A DNA stretch of 37,106 bases from Planctomycetota bacterium (lineage in GTDB: Bacteria > Planctomycetota > B15-G4 > JADJEK01), in NCBI GenBank assembly GCA_044225365.1, contig JBGAIQ010000052.1, forward strand, positions 1 to 37,106, written 5' to 3'. Shown in pieces: positions 3,491 to 27,394 of the stretch; the stretch's first letter is position 1, and each line of letters opens with the position of its first letter. The notes beneath the pieces were generated by a model. That model saw nothing but the letters and a program-made list of their open reading frames with translations. It was not told the DNA's origin and ran no database searches. Made by a program: the position numbers and the translations under genes.

Positions 3491-3494
<4 letters not shown>
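2820..3494 (-). CDS. deoC: Deoxyribose-phosphate aldolase
   Basis: Motifs IDHTILK, GFPLG, ELDMVI, VKVILET, FVKTSTGF and VKASGGIR. The GTG start overlaps the upstream stop (GTGA). Confidence 0.95.
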
Positions 3495-4408
<914 letters not shown>

Positions 4409-4508
4409 GGAATCCTCGGGAATCCTCGCGATAGGGAAGCGCGCTACCGTAGCGGTCGACACCGTCACGAGGAAGGGCGCGAAGTGGCCGATCGGCGCGA
4501 AGATCTCG

Positions 4509-5831
4509 TCAATTCGCACGAACCGACGGCGTGATCCGCTCGAGCGCCCGGCGGCCGACGCTCGGCCTCGAGTCGGAGATCTCGAAGGCTCCGAGGATCT
4601 TGTCGCGATGCATTGCGAACCGAGCCTCGTCGTCGTAGCGAATGATCGCGAGTTCGTCGCCCGCGTTCACCGCGTCGCCGCGGCGCTTCGTGAGCACGAT
4701 GCCGACGCCGGGGGCCACGACGTCCTCGACACGCTCACGGCCCGCGCCGAGTGCGCTCGCCGCGACGCCGATCGCCCGCGCGTCGACCCGCCCGACGAAT
4801 CCCGCGCGCGGAGCGACGATCGAGAACTGGTGTTTGCTGCGGGGCATTCGCGACGGATCTTCGATCGTGCGCGGATCCCCGCCCTGCGCGACCACCGCGG
4901 CGCGCCATTTCGTAAGAGCCGTCCCGTCCGCGAGACTTCGCTCGATGCGCGCCTCGCCGTCCGCGACGTCCTTCGCGATCCCCGCCATCACGAGCATCTC
5001 GCCGCCGAGGAGGACGACGAGTTCGACGACATCGCGGGGTCCGCCACCCTTCAGGACATCGACCGTTTCCTCGATCTCGAGCGCATTGCCCACCTTCGCG
5101 CCGAGAGGCTCGTCCATGTCCGTGAGCCAGGCGATCGTCGGCAAACCAAGCAAGACCGCGGTATCGACGAGGCTCGTCGCGAGCGCCTTCGCCGAGGCGT
5201 AGTCGCGCATGAATGCACCGCTGCCGGTCTTGACGTCGAGGACGAGCGCCGAGATCCCCGAAGCGATCTTCTTGCTGAGGATGCTCGAGGTGATGAGGGG
5301 GATCGACGGGACGGTGCCGCTCGCGTCGCGCAGGCGATAGAGCACGCGATCGGCCGGAGCGAGATCGCTCGTCGCGGCGCCGAACGCGAGGCCGATGCGT
5401 GCGACCTGCGAGCGGATCTCGTCCTCAGAGAGACCGACGCGGAAGCCGGGGATCGATTCCAGCTTGTCGAGCGTCCCTCCGGTGTGACCGAGCGAGCGAC
5501 CCGAGATCATCGGAACGTGGCCGCCGCACGCCGCGACGGCGGGCGCGAGCGGCAACGAGATCTTGTCCCCCACGCCGCCCGTCGAATGCTTGTCGACCTT
5601 GATCCCGGGGATCGCACCGAGATCCGCGATTCGACCCGAACGCGTCATCGCGGCAGTGAGATGCGAGGTCTCCTCCGCGCTCATCCCGCGACAGCAGATC
5701 GCCATGAGCATCGCGGTGATCTGGTAGTCGGGAATGCGGCTCTTCACGACCGCGTCGACGAACGACGCAATTTGTTCGCTCGAGAGCGCGCCGCCGTCAC
5801 GTTTCGATTCGATCGCGGGCAGGATGGACAT
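4509..5831 (-). CDS. pdp: Pyrimidine-nucleoside/thymidine phosphorylase
   Basis: Motifs KRDG, PDYQ, DKHSTGGVGDK, MISGRSLGHTGGTLDKLESIPGF, LITSSILSKK, DVKTGSGAFM and GNALE. Confidence 0.95.
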   Translation of the reverse strand: MSILPAIESKRDGGALSSEQIASFVDAVVKSRIPDYQITAMLMAICCRGMSAEETSHLTAAMTRSGRIADLGAIPGIKVDKHSTGGVGDKISLPLAPAVAACGGHVPMISGRSLGHTGGTLDKLESIPGFRVGLSEDEIRSQVARIGLAFGAATSDLAPADRVLYRLRDASGTVPSIPLITSSILSKKIASGISALVLDVKTGSGAFMRDYASAKALATSLVDTAVLLGLPTIAWLTDMDEPLGAKVGNALEIEETVDVLKGGGPRDVVELVVLLGGEMLVMAGIAKDVADGEARIERSLADGTALTKWRAAVVAQGGDPRTIEDPSRMPRSKHQFSIVAPRAGFVGRVDARAIGVAASALGAGRERVEDVVAPGVGIVLTKRRGDAVNAGDELAIIRYDDEARFAMHRDKILGAFEISDSRPSVGRRALERITPSVRAN

Positions 5832-7193: not shown

Positions 7194-7901
7194 TCACGGT
7201 CCTGCGAGATCGGGGCTGACGAATCCGCCGTGGCAGATCTTGTTGCGCACCAAGTAGAGCGGGACCAACGCCAGATCGACGAAGACAGCGACCGGCATGA
7301 TGAACGGCGCGATCCCCGCCCGCAGCGTCGATTGCTCGCCTGTCCCAACGACCACGCTGCCGATGCATCGCCACGAGCGAACGGCGTCGGAGGACGCGAA
7401 GCACTCGACCACGAAACGTCGATCCGCATCACGAACGATGCGAGCGGCCATCGATTCATCACCACGCACGCGATGCGGCGGCGCTCCCAGCTCGAAGAAA
7501 ACGGGCTCGGATGCGACGTCACCGTCGGCGTTGGCGCGCACTTCATCGCGCCCCGCGGAGGCCTTCTCGATCCGTCGCGTCGCGGCGTCGTCCGAGCGGT
7601 ATCCCGTGCGTATGGAATCGTCCCAGGTCAGAACCTGCCAGAGCGGGTCCGCCTCCGAGCGAGGTCCCTTCCATTCGATGACCGGCGCCGCCGGCTCGGT
7701 TGGGTGGATCGGGATGGTGAAGGAGTATCGCCCATCCTCGACGTCCCGCAGATTCTTGACGTCGAGCAGGACCGTCGCGTCGCCCTCGTGGAGGTCCGTG
7801 AGACCGACGACATCGACCTCGTCACGCGACCAGCGATCGACGAGGTCCGAGCAGCACGCGGCGGGGAACGATGCGAACAAGATGCAAATCAGCGGGCGCA
7901 T
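7194..7901 (-). CDS. Hypothetical exported protein/lipoprotein with hydrophobic C-terminal segment
   Basis: Probable start at 7901 (MRPLICILFASFPAACC), with GAGGG upstream. C-terminal hydrophobic stretch IAPFIMPVAVFVDLALVPLYLV. Confidence 0.5.
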   Translation of the reverse strand: MRPLICILFASFPAACCSDLVDRWSRDEVDVVGLTDLHEGDATVLLDVKNLRDVEDGRYSFTIPIHPTEPAAPVIEWKGPRSEADPLWQVLTWDDSIRTGYRSDDAATRRIEKASAGRDEVRANADGDVASEPVFFELGAPPHRVRGDESMAARIVRDADRRFVVECFASSDAVRSWRCIGSVVVGTGEQSTLRAGIAPFIMPVAVFVDLALVPLYLVRNKICHGGFVSPDLAGP

Positions 7902-7963
7902 TCGATCCCTCGCAGCGGTCGGATCCCTGCCCACGATCGCTCCTCCGATTCCGCGCTCCATGA

Positions 7964-8076
7964 TGCACGGGGTGCACGGGGTGCACGGGGTGCACGGGCG
8001 CACGGCTCGCTGCATTCGATCACGCCTCGATCGGATCCTACTCCAGGACCTCTCGTCGAAGGAGTCCAAGGAGTCC
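7964..8076. repeat. Intergenic 9-bp tandem repeats: (TGCACGGGG) x~4 and (AAGGAGTCC) x2
   Basis: TGCACGGGG at 7964, 7973 and 7982, TGCACGGGC at 7991, plus a partial copy. AAGGAGTCC at 8059 and 8068. They lie in a divergent intergenic region. Confidence 0.8.
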
Positions 8077-8259
8077 ATGGTCCTGCTAACCGCGGCCGCG
8101 GAACGGCCTTCGGCGCGTGTTTCATCCGTGCGCGAGTCCGATCCGAGATGACAGCCGAACCCCCTACGCTTCATGGCTTTGTCGTGACAGAACATTCATG
8201 CGTGGCGGCCGCGTCGCGACCTACGATTCGCGCCTGGTCGATCGGTCCAGGAGGCACTC

Positions 8260-9141
8260 ATGAATTGGCGGTCCAACCCGGGCGTCGTCGCCCCATTCCT
8301 CGTCGCGATGCTCGCCGCGATTTCACTCCCCGTCGCGCACGCGGCAGTCGGTTCGAAGATCGATCCGCAGAAGCCTGCGGCGCCCATTCAAGAGCGAAAG
8401 CTCCACAATCCGTTGATCGAGAACGCGAAGAACGCCGACGACACCTCGCGCGACGTCGTCGCGGGCGTCATCGACTACGACGTTCCGAAGCTCGAGGCTG
8501 CGATCGCGAAGCTCGAGAAGCGCGCGGGCACGACGGACAGCAAGCCGGACGACGACTACTTCCTCGCGCAGGGTCGGGTCGGACTGCTGCAGATCAAGCG
8601 CTTCTACGAGACGGACGAGAAGGACAAGATGCCGCCGTCGCTCGAGAAGATCGATCTCGATTCCTTCGCCGACGCGACGCTCGAGATCGCGCAGCGCTAC
8701 GCGCAGGCTCATCCCGATCACTCCGACATCCAACGCGTGATCGGTGAGATCTACTCCGCGAAGATCCGCGGGATGACGGGCGGGATGACGCAGGGACCGA
8801 AGGCGAAGGCGGCGATCGAAGCCGCGCTCGCGAAGGATCCGCAGAACGGGCTCGCCCTGCTCTGTCAGGGTCGCATGCACTACCACAACCCATCGTTCGC
8901 CGGCGGCGACAAGAACCTTGCGCTCGTCGAATTCCGCAAGGTGGCGCAGGACATCGACGACATCCGCGCTCACCTCTACATGGCGCGCATCTATCGCGAT
9001 CGTGAGATGTACTCCCAGGCGCGCTTCTTCGCGAAGAAGGCGCTGCGAGTCGCCCCGGAGAACCCGGAGGGCAAGCTCCTCCTCTCGAACGCCGAGGCCG
9101 CGGAAGCGAAGCAGAAGTCGGAGAAGGGCGGTTCGCGATGA
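8260..9141 (+). CDS. Exported tetratricopeptide-repeat (TPR) protein
   Basis: GGAGG RBS and a signal peptide ending PVAHA. Helical TPR-like units: AALAKDPQNGLALLCQGRMHY, AHLYMARIY, KALRVAPENPE. Confidence 0.8.
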   Translation: MNWRSNPGVVAPFLVAMLAAISLPVAHAAVGSKIDPQKPAAPIQERKLHNPLIENAKNADDTSRDVVAGVIDYDVPKLEAAIAKLEKRAGTTDSKPDDDYFLAQGRVGLLQIKRFYETDEKDKMPPSLEKIDLDSFADATLEIAQRYAQAHPDHSDIQRVIGEIYSAKIRGMTGGMTQGPKAKAAIEAALAKDPQNGLALLCQGRMHYHNPSFAGGDKNLALVEFRKVAQDIDDIRAHLYMARIYRDREMYSQARFFAKKALRVAPENPEGKLLLSNAEAAEAKQKSEKGGSR

Positions 9142-9587
9142 TCGCGCGCATTCCAACGTCCCTTCGGCGCAGCGCACGGATCTCGGTCACGCTTGCGACA
9201 CTCGCGCTGTCCGGACTCGGCGCCTTCGGCTGCGCGTCGCACGACAGGCTCCTCGAGGACGACGTCAAGGTCACGGAGGAGGAAGTTCTCGCGGCCGGCA
9301 GCGCGAAGTCGCCGGACGTCACGAACCACCTCCATCACATCCTCGATCACCGCGGCGACTACGACACGAGCATCGTCGTGGCGGCGCTCGTCGCGATCGG
9401 TGAACGCCGCGACACCTCGTCGATCCAGCCGATCTCCCGGCTCGGCTCGGACGAGAACGAGGAGATCCGATGGCACTGCGTGCTGGCGCTGAAGGCGATC
9501 GGTGGCCCCGAAGCGACGGCGGCGCTCGAACGATTCGCGGATGACAAGAGTGTCCTCGTTCGCGACGAAGTCGCCGCCCGAAATTGA
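9138..9587 (+). CDS. HEAT-repeat lipoprotein
   Basis: ATGA overlap and lipobox-like AFGC. HEAT/PBS-like motifs ALVAIGE, DENEEIRWHCVLALKAIGG and DKSVLVRDE. Confidence 0.75.
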   Translation: MIARIPTSLRRSARISVTLATLALSGLGAFGCASHDRLLEDDVKVTEEEVLAAGSAKSPDVTNHLHHILDHRGDYDTSIVVAALVAIGERRDTSSIQPISRLGSDENEEIRWHCVLALKAIGGPEATAALERFADDKSVLVRDEVAARN

Positions 9588-9617
9588 AAGTGTGAGCGAG
9601 TTCGGAGGATTCGAACC

Positions 9618-10064
9618 ATGTTCATGGTCACTGGCAGCGAGAACTCTCGAGATCTGACGCACGAACAACTGTGGCGCGGGCTGGTCCGCAAGGCCGAGGA
9701 TCCGACGCCCTTCGTTCGCGCGATCACCGAGTGCCGCGTCGTCGAGCGCGGCGAGAATCACCTCGTACGCGAGATCGTGCTGCGCGGCGAGAAGGTCCGC
9801 GAGCTCGTCACGTTCGAAGAACCGAATGTCGTGCGGTTCGTCCGCCTGTCGGGTCGCGTCTTCGGAACGATCGAGAATCGGATCGAGGACCAGCCCGATG
9901 GCGAAGTCGCCCTGCGCTTCACGTTCCGGCTCGAAGCCAACGATCTGCCCGCGGGCAGCGCCGCCGAGACGGAATACGCGGCGATGATGCGCGACTCCTA
10001 CCTCGCGGCGATCCACTCCACCATCGAACGTACGCGACTCTGGTACAGCGGGAAGGCGTCATGA
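9618..10064 (+). CDS. AtaL/DUF1857-like SRPBCC (START-fold) protein
   Basis: GGAGG RBS. The N-terminal LTHEQLWRGLVRKAEDPTPFVRAITECRVVER is characteristic of the DUF1857/AtaL family. Confidence 0.8.
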   Translation: MFMVTGSENSRDLTHEQLWRGLVRKAEDPTPFVRAITECRVVERGENHLVREIVLRGEKVRELVTFEEPNVVRFVRLSGRVFGTIENRIEDQPDGEVALRFTFRLEANDLPAGSAAETEYAAMMRDSYLAAIHSTIERTRLWYSGKAS

Positions 10065-10447
10065 CCGCATCGCGCGTCTCGATCTGCCTCCTCGCTCTCC
10101 TGCCGCTTGCTCTCTTCGGCGCCGGGTGCAGCGACGCGTGGGACGCGACGCAACTCAACACACTGCGCGCGGCCTCGGATCATCGCGCCGACGTGAGCCC
10201 TGACGCGATCGTCGAAGCCCTCGTCTACACCGCGAAGAATCCGGCTCCGATCGCGCTTCCGATCGTCATCGAACTCTCCAAGGACGAGGTCGAAGACGTC
10301 CGGTTCGCGACCGTGGGCGCACTCGCGGCCTACCCCGACACGAACGCGCGCGATGCTCTCGCCGCGCTCGCCGCGAGCGACAAGAGCGAACAAGTGCGCG
10401 AAGAGGCGAAGGCCGCGATGGAGCGGGCCCGAGGAGTCAAGAAGTGA
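10061..10447 (+). CDS. HEAT-repeat lipoprotein
   Basis: True start is the ATG at 10061 (ATGA overlap). Signal peptide with a lipobox-like GAGC. Motifs DEVEDVRFATVGALA and DKSEQVREEAKAAM. Confidence 0.75.
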   Translation: MTASRVSICLLALLPLALFGAGCSDAWDATQLNTLRAASDHRADVSPDAIVEALVYTAKNPAPIALPIVIELSKDEVEDVRFATVGALAAYPDTNARDALAALAASDKSEQVREEAKAAMERARGVKK

Positions 10448-11955
10448 AACTTCTCATCACCGGTGCGACGGGTCGGGTCGGAACGGCGCTCGTCGAGCGG
10501 CTCGCCGGCATCCACTCGCTGCGACTTCTCGCCCACGGCGATCCTGCGGACGTCTCGCGTGCCAAGGAACGCCTGGTCTCCCACTTCGGCGGCGACGTGG
10601 GCGCTCGAATCGAATCGGGCGAGATCGAGGTCGAATGCGGCGATCTCGAGCTTCCCGGACTCGGGCTCGACTCGAAACAGCGCCGCGAACTCTCGCACGA
10701 CGTCGATGGCATCCTCCATCTCGCTGCACTCACGGACTTCGAGGATCCGGGCGACGATCGCCATCATCGCGTGAACGTCGGCGGCGCCCTCGAAATCGCT
10801 CGGCTCGCTGCTGCGAATTGCAAGCCGATCCCGTTGCTGCTCGTATCGACGGCCTACGTCTCGGGCGATCACGACGGCGAATTCGCGGAGACCGACCGCG
10901 ATGTCGGCCAGGGCTTCCACAATCCCTACGAGCGCTCGAAGCTCGCGGCCGAACATGCGGTGATCGAGTTCGCGCGGCGCTCCAACGTGCCGTGCTCGAT
11001 CTTTCGACTCGGGGTCGTGATGCCCGACGCGCCGCGCGCGGGTCTCGCGACCGGCCCGGGCCCGCTCGTCTTCCTCGAATTCCTCGCCGGTCTCGAAGGA
11101 CGCGGGGTGAAGCGCACGGGCAGCATTCGCTACACGGGCGACGTCGCCGCGACGCTCAACATGGTCTCGCTCGAAGCCACCGTCGAAGTGCTCGCGCGCG
11201 CTGCGGCGCGAATGGGCAGTCTGTCGGGTGTGTACCACGTGACCGCCCGGCGGCCGACCAGCATCGGACGGATCGCGAAGCTCGTGAACGAGCAGATCCC
11301 CACGCTCGAGATCGCTCTCGTCCCGACGAAATCACTCGACGATCCCGCGGGAGCCGACCGCCCCGATCGTATCGAAAAGATGCTCGCTCGCCATTGCCGC
11401 CCGTACGCGCCGTATCTGTTCGCATACACGGTCCACCGCCGCGAGCGACTCGATCGCGACGTCGATCTCTCGAACATCGACCTCGAACTCGACGAAGCCG
11501 CACTGCGGCGGATCTTCGCGGTGCACGTCGCGGCATGGCGCGGCACGCGGCGCAGCGGCAAGGGCTCCGCGCAACTGCAGTTGCTCGCGAATTCCATCGA
11601 GGAGTACTTCGGCACGTTCCTCCCGCCGCGGATGGGAGCACGACTCGTCCCCGGGCTGGAGTCGCTGACCGCGGACTTCACCGTGAGCGTGCCGCGCGTC
11701 GGCATCTACCGATTGCGAATCGTCCAGGGCATCCTCGATCGCGTCGAACGCGCGGATCGGCCATCGAGCGATATCGACTACGAGAGCGACGCCTCGTCGT
11801 TCCTGGAGGCCGTGCGCGGCGAGGTTCGCCCGTCCGAGTTGTTCTTCCAACGTCGCGTGACGATCCGCGGCGATCTGTATCGAGCGTTGTCGACCGCGAC
11901 CGCCCTCGAGGACTTCTTCGCGCTGCATCCCTTCGCGCAATCGCGTCCGGCTTGA
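10444..11955 (+). CDS. Extended SDR (thioester/fatty-acyl reductase-like, NAD_binding_4) fused to C-terminal SCP2 lipid-binding domain
   Basis: Rossmann motif LITGATGRVG, plus HLAA, VNVGG, VSTAYVSG and catalytic YERSK. The C-terminal FLEAVRGEVRPSELFFQRRVTIRGDL is SCP2-like. Confidence 0.85.
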   Translation: MKLLITGATGRVGTALVERLAGIHSLRLLAHGDPADVSRAKERLVSHFGGDVGARIESGEIEVECGDLELPGLGLDSKQRRELSHDVDGILHLAALTDFEDPGDDRHHRVNVGGALEIARLAAANCKPIPLLLVSTAYVSGDHDGEFAETDRDVGQGFHNPYERSKLAAEHAVIEFARRSNVPCSIFRLGVVMPDAPRAGLATGPGPLVFLEFLAGLEGRGVKRTGSIRYTGDVAATLNMVSLEATVEVLARAAARMGSLSGVYHVTARRPTSIGRIAKLVNEQIPTLEIALVPTKSLDDPAGADRPDRIEKMLARHCRPYAPYLFAYTVHRRERLDRDVDLSNIDLELDEAALRRIFAVHVAAWRGTRRSGKGSAQLQLLANSIEEYFGTFLPPRMGARLVPGLESLTADFTVSVPRVGIYRLRIVQGILDRVERADRPSSDIDYESDASSFLEAVRGEVRPSELFFQRRVTIRGDLYRALSTATALEDFFALHPFAQSRPA

Positions 11956-11989
11956 CCTCTTCGCGGAATCCGGCATCGAGCTCCCGATC

Positions 11990-13483
11990 ATGACGACGAC
12001 GATCCCCACCTCTCCCTCCTCCCCGACCTCGAGTTCGACGAGTGCGGGAACCGGCAGCCTCGTCCAGCTTCGCGAAGTGCCGAACCTGCCGGCGGCCACC
12101 TTGCGCGCCTGGCACGAACAACATCTCAACGCCGAGTTGATCCAGTTGCTTCGTCTCGGCGGCTTCGATCAGTTCGAGGTCGTGAAGGCCAAGGGACCGT
12201 ATCTCTACACGCGCGACGGCAAGCGGCTCCTCGATCTCGTCTCGTCGTACGCGGGCCTGAACCACGGCCACAATCATCCGCGCGTCCTCGCCGCGACGGC
12301 CTGGTTCGACGAGCAACAGGCGCCCGACCTCATCAAGGAGTTCCCTTCGCCCTACGCCGCGGCGCTCGCGCACAACCTCACCGCGCTCACGCCGCAGGGA
12401 CTCGACACGGTGTTCTTCTGCAATTCCGGCACGGAGGCCGTCGAAGGCGCACTCAAGCTCGCACTGCGCAGCTTCCAGGGAAAACGCGACCGCGTCGTGT
12501 ACGCCGAGAACTCGCTGCATGGCAAGACGCTGGGGTCGCTCTCCGTCACGGGCCGCGAGAAGTACCGTGCGAGCGTGCCGCGGTTCCACGACTGGCCGAT
12601 GGTTCCGTTCGGCGACGTCGCGGCACTAAAAGCCGTGTTCGCGGCCGACACCGAGTCGCGCATCGCGGCGCTGATCCTCGAGCCGATCCAGGGTGAAGGC
12701 GGCGTGAACGTACCGCCTCCGGGCTACCTCGAAGCCGCGCGGCGGATCGCGCACGATCACGGCGCGCTGCTGATCTTCGACGAGATCCAGACCGGCTTCG
12801 GTCGAACGGGCACGCTCTTCCGCTGCCAGGCAGAGAACGTGACTCCCGACATCCTGTGCGTCGCGAAGAGCCTCGGCGGCGGCGTGGCGACGATCGGAGC
12901 GACGATCGCCAAGTCGGCGATTCGCCGCCGCGCCTACGGCAGCATCCGCGATTGCCTCGTCCACACCTCGACGTTCGGCGGTCGCTCGCGCGCCTGCGCC
13001 GTCGCCATCGAAGCACTGAACGTGATCGTCGAGGAGGACTTCGCGGGACGCTCGCGCGAACTCGGTTCGTGGTTGAAGAACGAGCTCGAGGCCGTGGCCG
13101 CCCGTCATCCGGGTCGCATCCGAGCCGTTCGCGGCGAGGGTCTGATGCTGGGGATCGAATTCGAGATCCCGAAGCTGACCGGCCTCGCTTCCGCATTCGG
13201 CGCGCTCGGACTCAATCGAATCGTCGACGAGTACTACCCTGGTATCGTCGGCGCTGAACTGCTCCATCGCCACGGAATCGTGGCGTCGTTCGTCCTCAAT
13301 CATCCGCGCGTGCTGCGCATCTACCCCGCGGTCGTCGCGACTCGCGCGGATCTCGAAGTGATCCCGCGCGCGCTCGACGCCGTCCTTGCGCGCAGCGTGA
13401 ACGATCTCGTCCGCGATCGCGTGACGGATGCGGCGGGCCGACTCGGCGCCGAACCCCTCACGAAGTGGCTGAAGGACAGTTGA
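11990..13483 (+). CDS. Class III PLP-dependent aminotransferase (PatA/HpnO-like branch)
   Basis: Motifs GHNHP, FCNSGTEAVE, HGKT, EPIQGEGG, DEIQTGFGRTG, PDILCVAKSLGGG (PLP lysine) and HTSTFGG. Confidence 0.9.
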   Translation: MTTTIPTSPSSPTSSSTSAGTGSLVQLREVPNLPAATLRAWHEQHLNAELIQLLRLGGFDQFEVVKAKGPYLYTRDGKRLLDLVSSYAGLNHGHNHPRVLAATAWFDEQQAPDLIKEFPSPYAAALAHNLTALTPQGLDTVFFCNSGTEAVEGALKLALRSFQGKRDRVVYAENSLHGKTLGSLSVTGREKYRASVPRFHDWPMVPFGDVAALKAVFAADTESRIAALILEPIQGEGGVNVPPPGYLEAARRIAHDHGALLIFDEIQTGFGRTGTLFRCQAENVTPDILCVAKSLGGGVATIGATIAKSAIRRRAYGSIRDCLVHTSTFGGRSRACAVAIEALNVIVEEDFAGRSRELGSWLKNELEAVAARHPGRIRAVRGEGLMLGIEFEIPKLTGLASAFGALGLNRIVDEYYPGIVGAELLHRHGIVASFVLNHPRVLRIYPAVVATRADLEVIPRALDAVLARSVNDLVRDRVTDAAGRLGAEPLTKWLKDS

Positions 13484-13485
13484 TC

Positions 13486-14652
13486 ATGCCTTCGCAACTC
13501 GACTCGATTCCAGGGCGAGACGAAGCCGATGCGGCGCGCCGCACGATCGTCTGCACCGGCACGCCGCGCAAGGCGTCGGTCGCGAATGCTCGACTCGAAG
13601 AAGTGCTCGCGCTCCATTTCGACGAGCGCAAGGGCTCGAAGTTCTGGCTCGAACGCCGTCGCGAACTCGGGTTCGACCCACGCCGCGAGATCCGCGATGT
13701 GAGCGAGCTCCCGCGCCTCGGCGAGTTCGACCGCAGGTGGCTGCTCGAGCGGCCGCTCTATGACTTCATCCCGCGTGCGATCCACGAGACGCAACGCACC
13801 GAACTGATCCTCGCGGAGACCGGCGGAACCACGGGACGGCCCGTTCGCGCGGTGTTCACTCCGGAGGAATTCGTCGAGGCGTTCGGCACGCCGTTCACCA
13901 CGGTGAGCACTTCACGCGGCTTCCCATTCGGCGGCACGTGGCTCTTTCTCGGTCCGTCGGGCCCGCACGTCATCGGTCAAGCGGCGCGCCTGCTCGCGCG
14001 ATTGCACGGTTCGCTCGAGCCGTTCTCCGTCGATCTCGATCCCCGGCACGCGCGAGCCCAGGAGCCGGGTTCGCTCGGAGAGAAGCTCTATCGCGCCCAC
14101 GTCGTCGACCAGGCGCTCGACGTCCTCGCCCGGGAACCGATCGACGTGCTCTTCGCGACACCGCCCGTCGCGCTCGCGCTCGCCGATGCGCTCGATGCCG
14201 AACGACGAGTCGCCATCCTCGGAATCCATCTCGGCGGGATGGCCGTCGATCCCGCCCAGCGTGCTCGCCTGCGCGAGGCATTTCCATCGGCGTCGATCCT
14301 GCCCGCGTACGGCAATGCGCTGTTCGGGATCCTGCCGGAGCCGAAGGAACCGGATTGGCGCGCCGGCGAAACCGGTATCGACTACTACCCGCTCGACTCG
14401 CGGCTGCACGTCGACGTGGCCGCGCAGGAGAACGACAGCGTCGACATCACACGGTCCGTGAAGGCGGGCGAGAGCGGGCGCGTCGTCCTCTCCCGCATCG
14501 ACCGCTCGTTCTTCCTGCCGAACGTCGTCGAACGCGACGTCGCGACGAAGATCGTCGCATCTGACGCCCTGCGCGAACGCGGGTTCGGCCCGACCGGATT
14601 GCGCAACCCGAGGCCATTCGTCGCCGCTCAGGCGAATCGAGGGCTGTACTGA
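13486..14652 (+). CDS. EhpF-like / phenylacetate-CoA-ligase-like adenylate-forming enzyme (ANL superfamily, N-terminal domain only)
   Basis: ATG at 13486, 2 bp after the upstream stop. The N-terminal HFDERKGSKFWL...LGFDPRREI resembles EhpF-type proteins. P-loop ETGGTTGRP, YGN and NVVERD are present, and there is no C-terminal lid domain. Confidence 0.75.
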   Translation: MPSQLDSIPGRDEADAARRTIVCTGTPRKASVANARLEEVLALHFDERKGSKFWLERRRELGFDPRREIRDVSELPRLGEFDRRWLLERPLYDFIPRAIHETQRTELILAETGGTTGRPVRAVFTPEEFVEAFGTPFTTVSTSRGFPFGGTWLFLGPSGPHVIGQAARLLARLHGSLEPFSVDLDPRHARAQEPGSLGEKLYRAHVVDQALDVLAREPIDVLFATPPVALALADALDAERRVAILGIHLGGMAVDPAQRARLREAFPSASILPAYGNALFGILPEPKEPDWRAGETGIDYYPLDSRLHVDVAAQENDSVDITRSVKAGESGRVVLSRIDRSFFLPNVVERDVATKIVASDALRERGFGPTGLRNPRPFVAAQANRGLY

Positions 14653-15371
14653 TGTCCGAAGCGGGTGCGCGCGAACTCGAGCCGAACACCCATACTCACC
14701 GCATCGTGCCGGTCCGTCCCGGCGAGCGGCTGGAGTTTGCGGTCACCTACGGCGAACCCACGCGTGCAAGCGGCGCACTGCTCTGTTCGCCACAGCCGTT
14801 CCTCGGCGGCGATCTCGACAACAACGTCGTGCGCGCCATCGCGAATCGTCTCGCCACGGGGGGCCGTCCCGTCCTGCGCTTCAACTATCGCGCGGTCGGC
14901 AAGAGCCTCGATGTCACCGCGGGCCGCTCGCGGTACGACTACTGGAAGGCCGTCGAGGAACAGCAGGAGTTCGCCCCCGTCCTCGAGGATTGCGCATCGG
15001 CGTTGCTGCGATCGCGCGCCCTGTTCGATGTCGGGATCGTCGGCGGGTACAGCTTCGGCGCGTTCGCCGCGATGCGGCTCTGCATGGACGCTCGGATCGC
15101 ACCGCCGCTCGTGCTCGTCGCGCCGCCGCTCGCGAAACTCGATTTCTCCCCGCTCGAAGGACTCGGCTCAGGCTTCCGCCGCATCCTGATGATCTTCGCG
15201 GAGAAGGATGCACTCGATCCCACGCCCCCGCTCTCCGAGCTCGAGGCGCGTTTTCCCCGCGCGACGATCCACGTGCTGCGCGACGCCGACCACTTCTTCC
15301 GCGGGGACGAGTCGAGCGTCGGATCGATCGTCGCGGAATTCGCCGCGTCGAGTTGCGAGGTCGCGCCGTGA
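14652..15371 (+). CDS. Alpha/beta-fold hydrolase (COG2945-like)
   Basis: TGATG coupling. Motifs PQPFLGGDLDNNVV, LRFNYRAVG, nucleophile elbow GYSFG, acid (EKD) and histidine (ADHFF). Confidence 0.85.
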   Translation: MSEAGARELEPNTHTHRIVPVRPGERLEFAVTYGEPTRASGALLCSPQPFLGGDLDNNVVRAIANRLATGGRPVLRFNYRAVGKSLDVTAGRSRYDYWKAVEEQQEFAPVLEDCASALLRSRALFDVGIVGGYSFGAFAAMRLCMDARIAPPLVLVAPPLAKLDFSPLEGLGSGFRRILMIFAEKDALDPTPPLSELEARFPRATIHVLRDADHFFRGDESSVGSIVAEFAASSCEVAP

Positions 15372-16387
15372 CGAACTCGCGCCGGAGCTCCGCGACGGGA
15401 CTCGCGCTCGCCCTCGGCCTCGCGGCGATCGCCTTGCAGTCGTGCTTCCTCAGCCCCTACGGCTACCTCACGGAAGTCGACACACGAACGCGGTCGCCCA
15501 AGTCCGAGGATTGCGGCGGTTGCCACGTCGAGATCTATCGCGAGTTCAAGGCCTCGCGTCATGCGACGAGCTTCGTCGACCCGCAGTTCATGGATGCCAC
15601 CGCCGGGCATGCCTTCACCAACTGCCTCGGTTGCCACGCTCCGGAAACGATCTATTCCGAGGGCGAGCCGAAGCTTCGCGACGCGTTCCGCGAAGAGGGC
15701 GTCAACTGCGTCGCGTGTCACTTCGACAAGGACGTGCTCGCCGGTCCCGCACCCCGATCCGCGTTGATGGATCCCCACCCGGTCGCCGCCGAGCGGCAGA
15801 TGTATCGCAGCGCCGAGTTGTGCGGCAAATGCCACGTCGGCACGTTCAAGGAGTGGCAGGAAGCGAACGCGGCCGCGACTTCGTCGGTGAAGACGTGCCA
15901 GGAATGCCACATGAAGGCCGCGAAACGAACTCTCACCCAGGCCACGGATACGTTTTCGAAGGTCCTCGTCTCCTTCGAGGACGAGTTCGCCGGGCGCTCG
16001 CACACCTTCGAAGTCGACGCGATCGCGGGGATCGAGGACGCTTTCGAAGTGACGGCGGCCGTCGAATCGGATGGCGCCGCGGAGAATCCGGAGCGCAAGG
16101 TCGTCGCCATCCGCCTGACGAGCAAGGTGCCGCACCTCGTGCCGACCGGGGATTTCGGATTCCGTCGCGTGACGATGCAGTTCGAAGCCTCGAACGCCGC
16201 CGGAGACGTCGTCGCGACGCACTCCGAGGATCTGTTCAAGGAGATGAAGAACGTCGTCTCGAGCTCGAAGCCCCGCGAGTTCCATCTCGAATGCCCCGTG
16301 GCCGCGACGCAGTTGAGGATCGTTCTCTCGACCGGCAAACGCGAGGGCGCACGCGTCGTCGTCTTCGAGCGGAGGTTGTCGCTATGA
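15368..16387 (+). CDS. Pentaheme c-type cytochrome lipoprotein (cytochrome c554/c552-like)
   Basis: GTG start overlapping the upstream TGA, and lipobox LQSC. Five CxxCH motifs (CGGCH, CLGCH, CVACH, CGKCH, CQECH). C-terminal beta domain containing PHLVPTGD. Confidence 0.9.
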   Translation: MTNSRRSSATGLALALGLAAIALQSCFLSPYGYLTEVDTRTRSPKSEDCGGCHVEIYREFKASRHATSFVDPQFMDATAGHAFTNCLGCHAPETIYSEGEPKLRDAFREEGVNCVACHFDKDVLAGPAPRSALMDPHPVAAERQMYRSAELCGKCHVGTFKEWQEANAAATSSVKTCQECHMKAAKRTLTQATDTFSKVLVSFEDEFAGRSHTFEVDAIAGIEDAFEVTAAVESDGAAENPERKVVAIRLTSKVPHLVPTGDFGFRRVTMQFEASNAAGDVVATHSEDLFKEMKNVVSSSKPREFHLECPVAATQLRIVLSTGKREGARVVVFERRLSL

Positions 16388-17022
16388 ACGCGCTTCCGAC
16401 CCGCGAGACCGTGGTCCGGTTCAATGCGACGGAACGGGCCTATCACTGGGCGCAAGCGATTCCTTATCTCGTGCTGCTCGTGACCGGCGCGCTTCAATTG
16501 CTGGAACGGAAGGCTGGCGTTCATCTCGTCGAACTGGAATCGCTCGTCCTCACCCACAAGATCGCCGGTGTCGCATTGCCCGTCGGGATGTTCCTCGTAT
16601 TCCTCGGCGGCGACCGGAAGGTCCTGCTAACGAACGCCGCGATCGCATTGCACTGGCGCCTCGAGGACGTCCGCTGGCTCCTGATCGTGCCGGTGCACCG
16701 CCTCCTCGATCTCCGCCTGCCGCCGTCCGGAAAGTTCAATCCGGGACAGAAGCTGAACCTGCTCGCGCAGCTCGTCCTGATTCCGGTCTTTGCGTTCACG
16801 GGAGCATGGATGTGGTTCCGCGGTGAGGCTCTGCTGCCGTGGTACGTCCACGTCGGCGCCTTCGCCCTCGCGACCCCGCTGATCCTCGGTCACTTGTTCC
16901 TCGCCACGATCAATCCAAGTACGCGACCGGGACTGTCGGGCGTGTTCTCCGGACGAGTGAACGCGAGCTGGGCGCGCCACCACTACGCCAAGGAATACGG
17001 CGGCGAGGAGAAGAAGGCGTGA
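16384..17022 (+). CDS. Di-heme cytochrome b, FdnI (formate dehydrogenase gamma subunit)-like
   Basis: ATGA overlap. Four TM helices with His ligands (RFNATERAYHW, THKIAG, YVHVG, GHLFLA), the family motif GKFNPGQKL and C-terminal WARHHY. Confidence 0.9.
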   Translation: MNALPTRETVVRFNATERAYHWAQAIPYLVLLVTGALQLLERKAGVHLVELESLVLTHKIAGVALPVGMFLVFLGGDRKVLLTNAAIALHWRLEDVRWLLIVPVHRLLDLRLPPSGKFNPGQKLNLLAQLVLIPVFAFTGAWMWFRGEALLPWYVHVGAFALATPLILGHLFLATINPSTRPGLSGVFSGRVNASWARHHYAKEYGGEEKKA

Positions 17023-18920
17023 CTCCGAAACGGCGCGCCGTCGTCACGTCCTTCCTCGCGATCGTCACGATCGCCACCGTCGCGATCGCGGTGCAGCGAA
17101 TCCGGGCGTATTGGCCAGGACTCGAGAAGATCGTGGCGCAGGCGGCGGAGGTCGTGCAGCCGGCCCCCCTCTCGGCGATGCACCAGAACATCCCCGAGCT
17201 GAGCGAGTGCCGCGCGTGTCACGCCACCGCATCTTCGATCGCCGACGAGAAGTGCCTGAAATGCCACTCGGAGATCGGCGAACGGCGGGAAACGAAGCAG
17301 GGCTTCCACGGCAATGGACTCGTCGGTGCCTGCGCGCAGTGCCACAAGGACCACGGCGAGGGACTCATCACCTTCGACCGCGCCTCGTTCAACCATCGCC
17401 AGACGACGTTCCCCCTCGTCGAGCGCCATGCCGAGCTGAAGTGCGAGCAGTGCCACGAGAAGCCCGTGAGCGATTCGCGCCACGAGGGAATGCGATTCGA
17501 CTTCATCGGCCTGAAGCACGATTCGTGCGTCGCATGCCACGACGATCCCCATCACGGCGACCTCGTCGCGAAAGCGAGCGGCGAAGGCGCGGCGAGCGAC
17601 ATCGCAAAGGACCGCTCGTGCTCCTCGTGTCACGATCAGACCGGCTGGACCGGACGGCACATGAGTTTCAGCCACGAGGCGGACTCGTCGTTCAAGCTGC
17701 GCGGCGCGCATGCGAGCCTCGACTGCAAGAAGTGCCACGAGCCGACCGATGCGAAAGCGTCGCTCGCTTCCGCTCCGTTCAAGTCGCTCTCGACGGACTG
17801 CCAGAGCTGCCACGCGGATCCCCATCGCGGAACGCTGCTGACGAACGGCAAGTCGTGCACGTCGTGCCACGACCAGGATTCCTGGACCGGGCGCGACCTG
17901 TCGTTCGACCATTCGCGCGACACGACGTTCAAGCTGCGCGGCAAGCACGCGAGTCTCGAATGTACGGCATGCCACTCGCCCTCGGCACCGGGCGCCGCGC
18001 TCGCGACGGCGGACTTCAAGAACACCGCGACCGGCTGCGCTTCGTGTCACCAGGATCCGCACGCAGGGCAGTTCGAATCGCCCACCACGAACTGCGCGGA
18101 CTGTCATCAGGAGAACGGCTTCAAGGGTTCGGATCTGCTGTTCCGTCACGAGTCGGTGAAGAGCTTCCCGCTCACTGGCGCGCATGCCTCGGTCGCTTGC
18201 GCCGCCTGTCACAAGCCAACCGATGCCTCGAAGAACTCCGCGCTCGGCGCGAGGTTCCGCGGACTCGACACTTCTTGCGCGAGCTGTCACGAGGACCCGC
18301 ATGCAGGGAGTCTCGCTCCGAAGTCATGCACCACATGCCACGACACCGTCGCATGGACGGGGCCGCATCTCGTGTTCGATCATCGATCGAAGGTAACGAG
18401 CGATTTCACGCTCGATGCGGCGCACTCGACACTGTCGTGCGCGTCCTGCCACTCCTCGGTCGTCTTCAAGCCGACTCCCACCGACTGCGCGAAGTGCCAC
18501 GCGACGGAGGCCGCGCACCTCGACGGCAGAGTCGAGATCGCAGGCGAAGCGGCGCAATGGACGCCTTCACCGCACGCCGGAATCCTGAAGTGCACCGACT
18601 GCCACGACACGACCGCTCCGAACGAGCACATCGAGGACATCGCGACTCGCTGCGCGAAGTGCCATACGCAACACTATGCGACGCTGCTGCTCGAGCAGCG
18701 AGCTCATCTCGGTTCGATCGTCGGAGCGGCCCGCGAGAAGTTGTCCCAGGGCGCCTCCCCCACCGACGAGACCGCTGCGAAGCGGCGAGCAATCCTCGAT
18801 GCCGCGTTGAAGGTGAGCGCGCACGATTACCTGCCGGCGGAGCAGCAGGCGCGTGCGGTCCTCGAATCGCTGAGCGACTCGAAGGATCAACCGCCGGGAT
18901 CGAAGAGCGGCGGTGGCTGA
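17019..18920 (+). CDS. Membrane-anchored 19-heme c-type cytochrome
   Basis: GTG start at 17019 overlapping the upstream TGA, and an N-terminal TM/signal segment. I counted 19 CxxCH motifs in ~633 aa, arranged as repeated tri-heme modules. Confidence 0.92.
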   Translation: MTPKRRAVVTSFLAIVTIATVAIAVQRIRAYWPGLEKIVAQAAEVVQPAPLSAMHQNIPELSECRACHATASSIADEKCLKCHSEIGERRETKQGFHGNGLVGACAQCHKDHGEGLITFDRASFNHRQTTFPLVERHAELKCEQCHEKPVSDSRHEGMRFDFIGLKHDSCVACHDDPHHGDLVAKASGEGAASDIAKDRSCSSCHDQTGWTGRHMSFSHEADSSFKLRGAHASLDCKKCHEPTDAKASLASAPFKSLSTDCQSCHADPHRGTLLTNGKSCTSCHDQDSWTGRDLSFDHSRDTTFKLRGKHASLECTACHSPSAPGAALATADFKNTATGCASCHQDPHAGQFESPTTNCADCHQENGFKGSDLLFRHESVKSFPLTGAHASVACAACHKPTDASKNSALGARFRGLDTSCASCHEDPHAGSLAPKSCTTCHDTVAWTGPHLVFDHRSKVTSDFTLDAAHSTLSCASCHSSVVFKPTPTDCAKCHATEAAHLDGRVEIAGEAAQWTPSPHAGILKCTDCHDTTAPNEHIEDIATRCAKCHTQHYATLLLEQRAHLGSIVGAAREKLSQGASPTDETAAKRRAILDAALKVSAHDYLPAEQQARAVLESLSDSKDQPPGSKSGGG

Positions 18921-20347
18921 CGGAAGAGCGTCGGCTTCACCAGGAAGATGACCTTGCTCTGCCGATCGGTGAGCGTCTCGGTCTTGAAGAGGTATCCGAG
19001 CAACGGAATGTCGCCGAGGATCGGGATGCGCGTCACTCGCTCGATCTTGTTCGTGAGCTTGAGGCCGCCGATCGCGAACGGCTGGCCGTCGCGTACGTTG
19101 ATCACCGTCGATGCGGTGCGCTCCGAGATGATCGGATTGAGGATGCCCGTCTGTCCGGTCTCGATGAAGCCCGAGACGAACGACACCTCGGCGGTGATGT
19201 CGATCTGGATGATGTCGTCCATCAACACGTACGGTGTGACGACGAGCTTGATGCCGGTGTCCTCGAAACGCACCTGAACCTGAGTCAGATTTCCGTTGTT
19301 GCCGAGGACGGGTTGCAATACCGGCTGTTTCGTGCCCGTGTCGATGATCGCGCGATGCCCGTTCAGCACCGCCATCTTGGGTGAACTCAGCACTTCGGTA
19401 TTGCTGCTCTGCTGCACTGCACGCAGGATCGCCTTGTAACGGATGTCGCTCTCGAAGAAGGCGAGAGAGAGGCTGCCCACCTGATTGCCGGCGAGGAACG
19501 CATTGGGATCGAGCGGCGAGAGCAGCTGTCCAAACAAGGTGCTCTTGTCGTTGCCGCGGCCCACCTGGGTCTGCGTGCCATCGGGGTTCGTCTTGAAGTG
19601 GGGAGAGAGTTCTTCGACGGCGAGGTTCGAACCGACGTCGAGCGTGTCGTCGAACGTGATCTCGACGACGGTCGCCTCGATCTCCACCTGAGGCACGTCG
19701 GTGAGCAACGCGGTGAAGAACGTATCGACCTCGAAGAGCACATCCTCGGCGGCCGTCACCGCGATGAGATCCGACACCTTCTCGAGACCCGGGACGACGT
19801 TGGAGAGCGCCGCGACGCCCGGCCACTGCTTCGACGGCCGCGGATCGACTTGTACTCCAGGAGTCACCGTCACCGTCGCGGCAGCGGCATTGCCGGCGCG
19901 CGTGTGCGCCTTGATCAACGGCTCGAGGATCGTGCCGCTGCCCGCACGAACCCAGTACAAACGAGTGAGTCGACCGTCGGGCGCGCGAATCGTCTGGTGG
20001 GAGAACGGGTGGAAGGTCGAAACGAGTTTCGCTTTCGCTGCGGCCTTCTCCTTCGTCTCCTGCGCGCTCTGCATCGGCTCCGCGCCGACGAGGCCGGGCG
20101 GGAACGCGGTGTCGCGGGGTGTCGCGCCCTCCCATGGCGGCGACAGATGATCGATCGGCGCTTCGTCCTCGCTGTAGACCTTCACTTCGTGCGGAGACTT
20201 GATCCCTCGCGGGTCGGTCGTCGTCGTGGCACAGGAGCAGAGAACGAAGACGGAACTGCTGAACACCATCCACCGCGGCGACGCGTTCGCAGCACCGCGT
20301 GCACGAACGAAACCGACTTCCTCCGCTTGCCGCCGTGCATCCGCCAT
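18887..20347 (-). CDS. Secretin (GspD/PilQ family), short N-domain, probable lipoprotein
   Basis: Motifs PQVEIEATVVEI, EVLSSPKMAVLNG, FEDTGIKLVVTP, TVINVRDGQPFAIGGL, RIPILGDIPLLGYLFK and IFLVKPTL. N-terminal VFVLCSC. Confidence 0.92.
   Translation of the reverse strand: MADARRQAEEVGFVRARGAANASPRWMVFSSSVFVLCSCATTTTDPRGIKSPHEVKVYSEDEAPIDHLSPPWEGATPRDTAFPPGLVGAEPMQSAQETKEKAAAKAKLVSTFHPFSHQTIRAPDGRLTRLYWVRAGSGTILEPLIKAHTRAGNAAAATVTVTPGVQVDPRPSKQWPGVAALSNVVPGLEKVSDLIAVTAAEDVLFEVDTFFTALLTDVPQVEIEATVVEITFDDTLDVGSNLAVEELSPHFKTNPDGTQTQVGRGNDKSTLFGQLLSPLDPNAFLAGNQVGSLSLAFFESDIRYKAILRAVQQSSNTEVLSSPKMAVLNGHRAIIDTGTKQPVLQPVLGNNGNLTQVQVRFEDTGIKLVVTPYVLMDDIIQIDITAEVSFVSGFIETGQTGILNPIISERTASTVINVRDGQPFAIGGLKLTNKIERVTRIPILGDIPLLGYLFKTETLTDRQSKVIFLVKPTLFRQPPPLFDPGG

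Positions 20348-21502: not shown

Positions 21503-21508
<6 letters not shown>
21444..21508. promoter_or_regulatory. TGGCGGAAT repeat cluster (candidate upstream activator sites)
   Basis: Inverted copy ATTCCGCCA at 21444-21452 and direct copies at 21467, 21483 and 21495. Two copies extend to TGGCGGAATTAGGT. Confidence 0.55.

Positions 21509-27394
<5,886 letters not shown>

Follow-up and report, generated by a model that had tools for sequence, protein, structure and literature searches.

This report concerns a cluster of eleven genes at positions 8260-18920 of a 37,106-nucleotide stretch of DNA from a Planctomycetota bacterium (assembly GCA_044225365.1, contig JBGAIQ010000052.1); this whole stretch is referred to below as the window. 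The cluster places a block of four enzymes next to a pentahaem c-type cytochrome, a membrane cytochrome b, and a 19-haem c-type cytochrome, and the enzyme block recurs beside related pentahaem cytochromes in other genomes. All eleven same-strand (+) open reading frames (ORFs) proposed by a sequence-only reading of the window were recovered at the same positions, and comparisons with Pfam, NCBIfam, and the PDB reproduced each of its family calls, one of which, a short-chain dehydrogenase/reductase (SDR), can be refined to an SDR of the thioester-reductase type. Its haem counts, five CxxCH motifs in g9 and 19 in g11, were likewise confirmed. The genes, numbered g1 to g11, are listed here with their lengths in amino acids (aa) and the expectation values (E) of supporting matches.

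8260..9141, + strand: g1, secreted TPR protein with a signal peptide, 293 aa (TPR_14, E 6.6e-07; hydrophobic segment 5-32)
9138..9587, + strand: g2, HEAT-repeat probable lipoprotein, 149 aa (HEAT_2, E 5.9e-12; HEAT_PBS)
9618..10064, + strand: g3, small cytoplasmic protein of the AtaL/SRPBCC type, 148 aa (PF08982, E 2.7e-32)
10061..10447, + strand: g4, second HEAT-repeat probable lipoprotein, 128 aa (HEAT_2, E 2.1e-07), starting in an ATGA overlap
10444..11955, + strand: g5, thioester-reductase-type SDR with a C-terminal SCP2-like tail, 503 aa (NAD_binding_4, E 9e-35)
11990..13483, + strand: g6, class III (omega-type) aminotransferase, 497 aa (PF00202, E 4.7e-88)
13486..14652, + strand: g7, EhpF-like adenylate-forming enzyme, 388 aa (EhpF, PDB 3l2k/3hgu, E 2.5e-26)
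14652..15371, + strand: g8, alpha/beta-fold serine hydrolase, 239 aa (Abhydrolase_6, E 7.6e-06)
15368..16387, + strand: g9, pentahaem c-type lipoprotein cytochrome with a C-terminal beta-sandwich, 339 aa (five CxxCH)
16384..17022, + strand: g10, FdnI/HydC-type membrane cytochrome b, 212 aa (PF01292, E 7.5e-14; TIGR01583, E 3.6e-14)
17019..18920, + strand: g11, membrane-anchored 19-haem c-type cytochrome, 633 aa (19 CxxCH; Cytochrome_C7, E 5.6e-23)

The tight junctions described by the sequence-only reading were confirmed on the letters. Seven of them are overlaps, with ATGA at 9138 (g1 and g2), 10061, and 16384, GTGA at 10444, 15368, and 17019, and TGATG at 14652, and the other three are gaps of 30 bp (g2-g3), 34 bp (g5-g6), and 2 bp (g6-g7, with the ATG of g7 at 13486). 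All eleven ORFs show coding-type GC content at third codon positions (GC3), and an AGGAGG-like site precedes the ATG of g1. The unit is bordered upstream by minus-strand genes, the nearest at 7194-8195 and more beyond, and downstream by a convergent secretin gene (18887-20347, -). A simple consensus scan of 7900-19400 returned no sigma-70-like or terminator-like sites, which is no proof of a single transcript, and the sigma-54 consensus is matched five times in the window, against 7.1 matches expected, with none near g1. N-terminal hydrophobic segments are found in g1, g2, g4, g9, and g11 and are missing from g3 and g5-g8; the enzymes g5-g8 are therefore taken to be cytoplasmic, and g1, g2, g4, g9, and g11 to face the periplasm.

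The adenylate-forming enzyme g7 aligns with EhpF from residue 34 to residue 357, over residues 21-337 of chain 3l2k_A, in a phmmer comparison with the PDB. Like EhpF, g7 falls short of the length of canonical ANL enzymes by about 120 residues and lacks their C-terminal subdomain, which binds phosphopantetheine: the alignment reaches the end of EhpF, homologues of g7 measure 343-411 aa, and the Pfam AMP-binding family is matched as a fragment only (E 0.002). At E <= 0.001, g7 has 474 homologues, some of which are named ThnN by JGI. The reductase g5 scores 120.5 bits against PF07993 (cut-off 20.1) and contains a Rossmann motif, GATGRVG, and a catalytic YERSK motif, and its match to TIGR01746 (E 2.4e-29, 102.7 bits) stays under the cut-off of 213. 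The SCP2 tail of g5 falls below the Pfam cut-off (E 0.0011, 19.7 bits against 21.3), matches UbiT-type SCP2 at E 3e-4, and is backed only via homologues, by a standalone SCP2 gene in the related locus L020 (33.6 bits). The aminotransferase g6 covers positions 11-394 of 403 in the PF00202 profile (296 bits, cut-off 30.5). Its best NCBIfam match is the aminotransferase part of PigE (NF053554, E 2.4e-120, 403.3 bits), which is confined to profile positions 379-730 of 837 and fails the equivalog cut-off of 850. In the hydrolase g8, the triad Ser134, Asp186, and His214 is invariant in 32 sequences; a complex prediction for g7 with g8 gave scores of 0.02 and 0.01 against a mark of 0.32, which provides no verdict either way.

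Because the EhpF-like g7 lies beside the reductase g5, the conversion of an acid to an aldehyde through an acyl-adenylate is the natural reading of this pair, and because an SCP2 tail is combined with an AtaL-type protein, the substrate is read as hydrophobic. Judged from family chemistry, the simplest reaction sequence of the block would lead from a carboxylic acid through an acyl-AMP and an aldehyde to a primary amine.

Relatives of the cluster were collected with an alignment of 24 g7 homologues, which gave 206 matches in one-genome-per-species contigs. The best 80 of these 206 were examined together with flanks of at most 10 kb in either direction; 40 of them, with at least 7 kb upstream and at least 6 kb downstream, are termed well flanked, and neighbour families were defined by all-against-all ORF clustering followed by family hidden Markov models. 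By tblastn, g8 accompanies g7 in 80 of the 80 loci, and g5 is found in 63, g6 in 54, g9 in 40, g11 in 24, g10 in 20, g1 in 5, g3 in 3, g2 in 2, and g4 in none. Across the 40 well-flanked loci, the hydrolase family is present in 40, the reductase in 39, an exporter in 34, the aminotransferase (of two sequence types among the relatives) in 31, the pentahaem cytochrome in 26, any U32 protein in 24, any mqn gene in 16, a large multihaem cytochrome in 14, the lipoprotein family F14 in 12, and the cytochrome b in 11. These distributions form three layers of conservation: a cross-phylum core, consisting of the EhpF-like adenylase, the serine hydrolase, the thioester reductase (with or without SCP2), and the class III aminotransferase; a periplasmic partner; and lineage-specific additions. 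The suggestion that all eleven genes act as one unit is borne out in part, in that the enzyme block with the pentahaem cytochrome recurs, but the full set of eleven is not conserved together. The adenylase itself, distant homologues included, occurs in 53 of 201 Planctomycetota genomes.

The pairing of enzyme and cytochrome genes, on which the sequence-only reading had staked its proposal, is not peculiar to the window, as the enzyme block and the pentahaem cytochrome stand together in 26 of the 40 well-flanked loci. Loci with both belong to Planctomycetota and to Desulfobulbales-type genomes and show several gene orders: the cytochrome gene is downstream of the hydrolase in the window's clade, adjoins the aminotransferase in Sedimentisphaerales/Phycisphaerales-type loci, and stands at the start of the operon in loci of the Desulfobulbales type. 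Of its 42 ORFs, 40 share the strand of the adenylase, and the distance between the two genes is 7 kb at most. In a quick tree of the adenylase, with 29 rows in the Desulfobulbales-type clade, the cytochrome occurs on both main halves. The reciprocal comparison covered the 201 Planctomycetota genomes, with a strong g9 orthologue defined by at least 250 bits and a window-like adenylase by more than 430 bits. Fourteen genomes carry a strong g9 orthologue, and in ten of these the same contig carries the adenylase no more than 10 kb away. In one of the other four, both genes are on separate small contigs; in another (G137, complete), they lie 1.17 Mb apart; and in the remaining two, with completeness of 89% and 84%, no adenylase was seen. 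From the enzyme side, 12 of the 13 genomes with a window-like adenylase carry a strong g9 orthologue. The link to the cytochrome is thus real, but narrower than eleven genes.

The g9 protein is a member of the c552/ExtKL "PHC" family. Its AlphaFold model (pLDDT 86, pTM 0.78) has the Thermochromatium tepidum pentahaem cytochrome c552 (5ze8) as its top Foldseek match (E 5.5e-12, TMq 0.57), and a profile of 32 g9 orthologues finds the same PDB entry at E 2.8e-14, including the PHxxPTG stretch of the beta-sandwich. Within these 32 sequences, the lipobox cysteine (Cys26) is near-invariant, and the five proximal histidines are accompanied by four further invariant histidines; since only four extra histidines are available for five haems, one haem of g9 may be open or otherwise ligated. 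The g9 gene contains no in-frame stop and encodes no selenocysteine, and the only invariant cysteines of the family are those of the five CxxCH motifs. Exactly five such motifs are found in the pentahaem protein of the well-flanked loci, with the sole exception of an ORF with four in L071. Against the NCBIfam model for ExtKL (NF040886), g9 scores 50.5 bits (cut-off 250).

According to the accessible text of PMC11976967, c552, Geobacter ExtKL, and the cable-bacteria sPHC have been grouped as one family, members of which are discussed as candidate conduction components of cable bacteria. ExtKL, also called MccSep, is a selenoprotein reported to be essential for elemental-sulfur respiration, and its haems 1, 3, 4, and 5 are described as bis-His-ligated in the available part of bioRxiv 2025.11.18.688581. 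The features that g9 shares with the family are the five CxxCH motifs, the 5ze8-like fold, the PHxxPTG stretch, and what appears to be the pattern of four bis-His haems and one odd haem. In contrast to MccSep/ExtKL, g9 is a lipoprotein with neither selenocysteine nor an extra conserved cysteine. In the genome it is accompanied by a biosynthetic block, and the accessible text of PMC11976967 mentions no such partner for PHC proteins.

Where the pentahaem cytochrome is missing, another predicted lipoprotein takes up the same neighbourhood. Family F14 occurs in 12 of the 14 well-flanked loci without the cytochrome (its carriers include L013, L014 (4937-6112), L028, L036, L044-L046, and L054), and the two were found together in none of the 80 loci; both the g9 family and F14 are predicted lipoproteins. 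F14 has no Pfam or NCBIfam match and no CxxCH motif in 18 sequences. Its model (pLDDT 79) was assigned an NLP-type fold by VIA-align (Z 9.8 and 9.6, next row 5.6), a Foldseek search against the PDB gave nothing at E <= 0.001, and a comparison of F14 with the pentahaem cytochrome's C-terminal domain by hhalign showed no homology (probability 0.1). The NLP fold is known to bind lipid head groups. In four F14-type loci without the pentahaem protein (L045 (7067-7792), L058, L075, and L080), a monohaem class I cytochrome c (PF13442) is encoded just upstream of the reductase.

The two remaining cytochrome genes, g10 and g11, are adjacent and joined by a GTGA overlap. The g10 protein scores 52.3 bits against PF01292 (Ni_hydr_CYTB; cut-off 30.1) and 53.2 bits against TIGR01583, under the cut-off of 115.85, and His21, His58, His156, and His170, which we take to correspond to the haem ligands of FdnI, are all placed on hydrophobic helices. 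No FdnG/H or hydrogenase gene was found among the window ORFs scanned. The g11 protein belongs to the c7/c3 families, matches the DmsE family (E 1.9e-12), and has an N-terminal hydrophobic helix (residues 5-30). The accessible text of PMC13591261 describes CbcBA/CbcL of Geobacter sulfurreducens as a membrane cytochrome b with a membrane-anchored multihaem cytochrome c that passes electrons to periplasmic cytochromes. The g10-g11 pair has the same layout as CbcBA, a likeness of architecture; CbcA has 7 haems and a C-terminal anchor, whereas g11 has 19 haems and an N-terminal helix. In the well-flanked loci, the cytochrome b is present in 11 of 40, and a large (10-22-haem) multihaem cytochrome in 14 of 40. 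In L029 (371-3008), from a metagenome-assembled genome of the Desulfocapsaceae, the pentahaem gene is adjoined by genes for a 16-haem cytochrome and a cytochrome b; this is the sole Desulfobulbales-type locus with a trio mirroring those of the Planctomycetota loci.

The relatives also carry conserved genes without a counterpart in the window: an HAE3/HpnN-like resistance-nodulation-division (RND) exporter, short and long U32 proteins (TrhP/UbiU-like), MqnA-like and MqnD-like proteins, the pair MqnE and MqnC, and F14. Further neighbours are glycosyltransferases of family GT2 (4 of 40 loci have ones of the HpnB/CruG type), sigma-54-type regulators, and a histidine kinase. The exporter, of the HpnN/MMPL type and about 670 aa long, lies between the aminotransferase and the adenylase in relatives and is absent at window positions 13483-13486; similarly, the short U32 gene found between the hydrolase and the pentahaem cytochrome in L001, L002, and L006 is absent at 15368-15371. 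The window, L003, and L007 belong to a sub-lineage with the aminotransferase immediately next to the adenylase and the hydrolase immediately next to the cytochrome, and comparison with L001, L002, L006, and L008 revealed no exporter or U32 remnants at either junction of these three loci. In L020 (2-2586), L053, L014, and L029, the cluster is flanked by genes for a histidine kinase and for a response regulator that depends on sigma-54, and a homologue of the regulator lies in the window at 36405-37106 (-), 17 kb from the cluster.

The genes g1-g4 are lineage-specific additions, as the TPR, HEAT, and AtaL proteins have tblastn homologues in 0-5 of the 40 well-flanked loci (g1 in 5, g2 in 2, g3 in 3, and g4 in none). 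The motif GAFGC of g2 was recognised by eye. The g3 protein, which has neither a signal nor a transmembrane segment, is probably a binder of a hydrophobic ligand; it is carried by L006, L008, and L009, and the g1-g3 trio recurs only in L006 and L008. Speculatively, the AtaL protein, the HEAT lipoproteins, and the TPR protein could stand in for the exporter in the window's genome.

The strongest lead on the substrate comes from the futalosine pathway of menaquinone biosynthesis. The sequence-only reading had envisaged a hydrophobic, possibly redox-active molecule; the occurrence of futalosine-pathway genes in 16 of 40 well-flanked loci supports a molecule of this kind, and the substrate itself is put forward here as an inference. 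At least one mqn gene is present in each of these 16 loci, in at least four arrangements and in several phyla. MqnE (677 bits) and MqnC (766 bits) in L011 exceed their NCBIfam cut-offs, family F25 matches the chorismate dehydratase MqnA, and family F17 matches MqnD (TTHA1568), which lies between the adenylase and the aminotransferase in Gemmataceae-type loci. In two complete genomes, G001 (locus L047) and G002 (locus L054), every MqnA/C/E hit falls inside the adenylase locus; G001 contains a single PF02621 match, and no separate MqnD was detected in it. Of the 201 Planctomycetota genomes, 116 have MqnC, and these include all 13 that carry a window-like adenylase; SCP2 occurs with U32 in 24 of 40 related loci, a pair that resembles UbiT/UbiU. 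The product of MqnD, 1,4-dihydroxy-6-naphthoate, is an aromatic acid, as is the substrate of EhpF. Diversion of this naphthoate through an AMP-ligase has a precedent in PM100117/PM100118 of the gon cluster, as described in the accessible text of PMC4763440. Because mqn genes lie within 16 of 40 loci, a naphthoate is proposed as the acid, to be converted through an aldehyde into an aminomethyl group. As a substrate it is a tentative candidate, with the balance lying somewhat against it.

From gene content, conservation, and reciprocal linkage, which are observed, we infer an order of reactions, a substrate, and a use of the product by the cytochrome. In the proposed mechanism, g7 would adenylate a hydrophobic carboxylic acid, g5 would reduce the activated acid to an aldehyde with its SCP2 tail holding the lipid, g6 would transaminate the aldehyde to a primary amine, and g8 may release the acid or shuttle the acyl group. 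The most likely substrate would be 1,4-dihydroxy-6-naphthoate or a prenylated form of it, yielding a lipid of the aminomethyl-naphthoquinol type. In most relatives, the HpnN/MMPL-type exporter would bring the product to the periplasmic side; the window's organism may have lost the exporter and carries the AtaL, HEAT, and TPR proteins instead. The product would work together with the pentahaem lipoprotein g9, which may be wired to the pool of quinones by the CbcBA-like pair g10 and g11.

That a conserved biosynthetic block is coupled in this way to an electron-transfer block, with a naphthoate-derived aminomethyl lipid used together with the pentahaem cytochrome, is the reading we favour, at a little short of an even chance. 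In its most specific form, 1,4-dihydroxy-6-naphthoate, whether free or prenylated, would be diverted to a new nitrogen-bearing naphthoquinone lipid that is exported to the periplasmic leaflet and serves as a dedicated redox partner or cofactor of the cytochrome, its C6 carboxyl being kept, reduced, and transaminated to an aminomethyl group; this version, whose hosts would be many anaerobic Planctomycetota, Desulfobulbales, and members of other phyla, is possible but doubtful.

Several observations weigh against the naphthoate reading and its coupling to the cytochrome. The intergenic gaps are at most 34 bp, and family scans revealed no carrier-protein family (peptidyl or acyl carrier protein) in the eleven proteins. 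The window itself lacks mqn, exporter, and U32 genes alike. In the window's genome, the cluster is present once, the nearest relative of the exporter is 27% identical, no short U32 was found (at a completeness of 94%, by which its absence is unproven), and MqnE, MqnC, and MqnA are encoded on contig C60 and an MqnD-like protein on C49, away from the cluster. No mqn gene lies within 10 kb in 24 of the 40 well-flanked loci, including every Desulfobulbales-type locus, and 10 of the 53 adenylase-positive genomes have no MqnC at E <= 1e-90; all ten contain distant adenylase homologues only (about 190-240 bits). We know of no nitrogen-bearing menaquinone reported from these groups. The pentahaem cytochrome is absent from 14 of 40 loci, and G137 keeps it far from the adenylase. 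The survey of relatives was limited to the best 80 matches with the flanks given above, and the cross-tabulations for the Planctomycetota sample were read by eye on genomes that, being kin, are not independent. A further idea, that the block replaces UbiD-type decarboxylation, arose because UbiD (PF01977) was not found in the two complete genomes G001 and G002; it was rejected, as 41 of the 53 genomes with the adenylase do have UbiD, and the absence of UbiD from families f10 and f14 holds with or without the adenylase.

The strongest competitor keeps the same chemistry with a fatty or isoprenoid acid as substrate, so that the product would be a cationic envelope lipid exported by the RND pump and received by the lipoprotein, and the mqn neighbourhood would be secondary. 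SCP2, AtaL, and the HpnN/MMPL-type exporter are all lipid handlers, and the NLP fold of the alternative partner F14 and the HpnN-like pump fit any exported amphiphilic lipid. The GT2 proteins of the HpnB/CruG type, the 24 loci without an mqn gene, and the activity of PigE, the best match of g6, which works on an aliphatic aldehyde, point in the same direction. However, mqn genes in 16 of 40 loci are far above chance at 2-4 mqn loci per 5 Mb (an estimate, not a computed control), and in one locus type MqnD is inserted between the adenylase and the aminotransferase. In addition, the sole characterised relative of g7 uses an aromatic acid, the hydroxylation of quinone rings is a known setting for U32/SCP2 pairs, and a haem protein as the conserved partner would be left unexplained. 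A generic amino-lipid as the product is accordingly given a smaller, though still appreciable, share of credence than the naphthoate-derived lipid, and the same holds for this account as a whole.

The amine-forming enzymes and the cytochromes could also be independent modules, a tailoring pathway and a quinol:cytochrome c branch that share no more than a transcription unit or a neighbourhood. The patchy occurrence of the cytochromes fits this, with the cytochrome b in 11, the large multihaem cytochrome in 14, and the pentahaem protein missing from 14 of the 40 loci, as does the separation of 1.17 Mb in G137; multihaem cytochromes are abundant in these phyla, and 71 of the 201 genomes carry weaker g9 relatives. 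Mere adjacency, however, does not account for a linkage that is reciprocal and specific to the orthologue (10 of 14 and 12 of 13) and that persists through rearrangement in two phyla, on the same strand in 40 of 42 cases. Nor does it account for the mutual exclusion of the pentahaem cytochrome and F14, with no locus of 80 containing both, or for the monohaem cytochrome c that adjoins the reductase in four loci without the pentahaem protein. Independence of the two modules is therefore regarded as unlikely.

It is very improbable that the enzymes act on g9 itself, on its cofactor, or on its anchor, for example on a haem propionate or on the lipoprotein lipid. Haem carries carboxylates, both alternative partners are predicted lipoproteins, and some loci encode HEAT_PBS-type (bilin-lyase-like) lipoproteins and a CcmH/CycH-like TPR protein, all of which would suit such a modification; but the enzymes lack signal peptides and the partners are periplasmic, the RND lipid exporter and SCP2 suggest a free lipid, F14 has no haem motif, and we know of no precedent for a modification of this kind. 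Least credible of all is an antibiotic-type secondary-metabolite cluster with cytochromes as unrelated neighbours, an idea prompted by the family names EhpF, AtaL, ThnN, and PigE, from phenazine, acetylaranotin, thienamycin, and prodigiosin clusters, since no phenazine, non-ribosomal peptide synthetase, polyketide synthase, or beta-lactam core genes were found among the scanned window and locus genes, the spread is wide and largely clade-consistent (53 of 201 genomes; the 29-row Desulfobulbales-type clade), unlike that of sporadic antibiotic clusters, and sigma-54-type regulators and a histidine kinase flank several loci. The phenazine and acetylaranotin origins of EhpF and AtaL, invoked by the sequence-only reading, account for the family names and are uninformative on the product.

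If the naphthoate reading is true, menaquinone biosynthesis would gain a new branch and the membrane a new kind of electron carrier, and in the quinone-class form of the reading a class of respiratory quinones would be new and would have a haem enzyme of its own. Should it fail, the cluster would still encode an undescribed acid-to-amine lipid pathway. In either case, a biosynthetic block tied to one branch of the PHC family provides a testable lead on the partners of pentahaem cytochromes. There are precedents, such as the methylated menaquinones, for adapting a lipid or quinone to one respiratory enzyme in particular. The union, conserved in several anaerobe-rich phyla, of enzymes that would turn a hydrophobic acid, probably one of the vitamin K pathway, into an amine with a dedicated five-haem cytochrome suggests an as yet undescribed respiratory redox lipid or cofactor.

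Elsewhere in the window, a nucleoside-catabolism trio (2820-5831, -) upstream of the cluster encodes a DeoC-type aldolase, a PNP_UDP_1 phosphorylase, and a pyrimidine nucleoside phosphorylase; the PNP_UDP_1 family also includes the futalosine hydrolase MqnB. Beyond the secretin gene lies an ORF of 2072 aa with coding-type GC3 (21503-27721, -), and FG-GAP and beta-propeller repeat proteins are encoded at 200-1264, 29647-31269, and 31292-32875.

All parts of the cluster come from known families, and the combination is without a description in the literature searched, so that the view of the sequence-only reading, that no described system has this gene set, agrees with a search that excluded supplements and subscription journals; the accessible part of "Global distribution of isoprenoid quinones" does not mention the cluster either. 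The nearest parallel for g7 is the EhpF/EhpG pair of D-alanylgriseoluteic acid biosynthesis in Pantoea agglomerans (3l2k, 3hgu), with which it shares sequence similarity across the N-terminal ANL body, the missing C-terminal subdomain, and a neighbouring reductase. Bera et al. in 2010 reportedly proposed that EhpF and EhpG reduce a phenazine carboxylate to an aldehyde via the adenylate. The window's reductase is an SDR of the thioester-reductase type that carries an SCP2 tail, whereas EhpG is an aldehyde-dehydrogenase-family protein according to the accessible text of PMC11278526. No Phz or aldehyde-dehydrogenase family was found among the scanned window genes, and the cluster adds an invariable serine hydrolase, an aminotransferase, a lipid exporter, and cytochromes. 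The logic of acid or thioester to aldehyde to amine is shared with PigE and with the cascades that combine a carboxylic acid reductase with an omega-transaminase; in contrast to PigE, the window proteins are separate rather than fused and are not accompanied by a carrier domain or prodigiosin genes.

The HAE3/HpnN-like RND pump of the relatives, which adjoins a lipoprotein of the g9 family or F14, recalls the HpnN/MmpL exporters and their lipoprotein acceptors, with the differences that no hopanoid or mycolate genes are present, that the pump is absent from the window, and that the lipoprotein is a presumed acceptor. In UbiT/UbiU/UbiV, the system of O2-independent ubiquinone hydroxylation, SCP2 and U32 proteins are combined as they are, side by side, in 24 of 40 related loci. 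However, the scores of the latter are far under the equivalog cut-offs, the window has only a weak SCP2 tail and no U32, and the hosts make menaquinone via the futalosine route. The closest counterpart of the proposed branch point is the gon cluster of Streptomyces caniferus, which combines dedicated mqnA/C/D/E genes with an AMP-dependent ligase at the same proposed position; as far as the accessible text of PMC4763440 goes, this actinomycete system lacks the reductase-transaminase pair, the RND exporter, and the cytochromes, and its product is a polyketide-linked naphthoquinone. In two of the genomes analysed here, in contrast to gon, the mqn genes of the locus are the only copies rather than duplicates.

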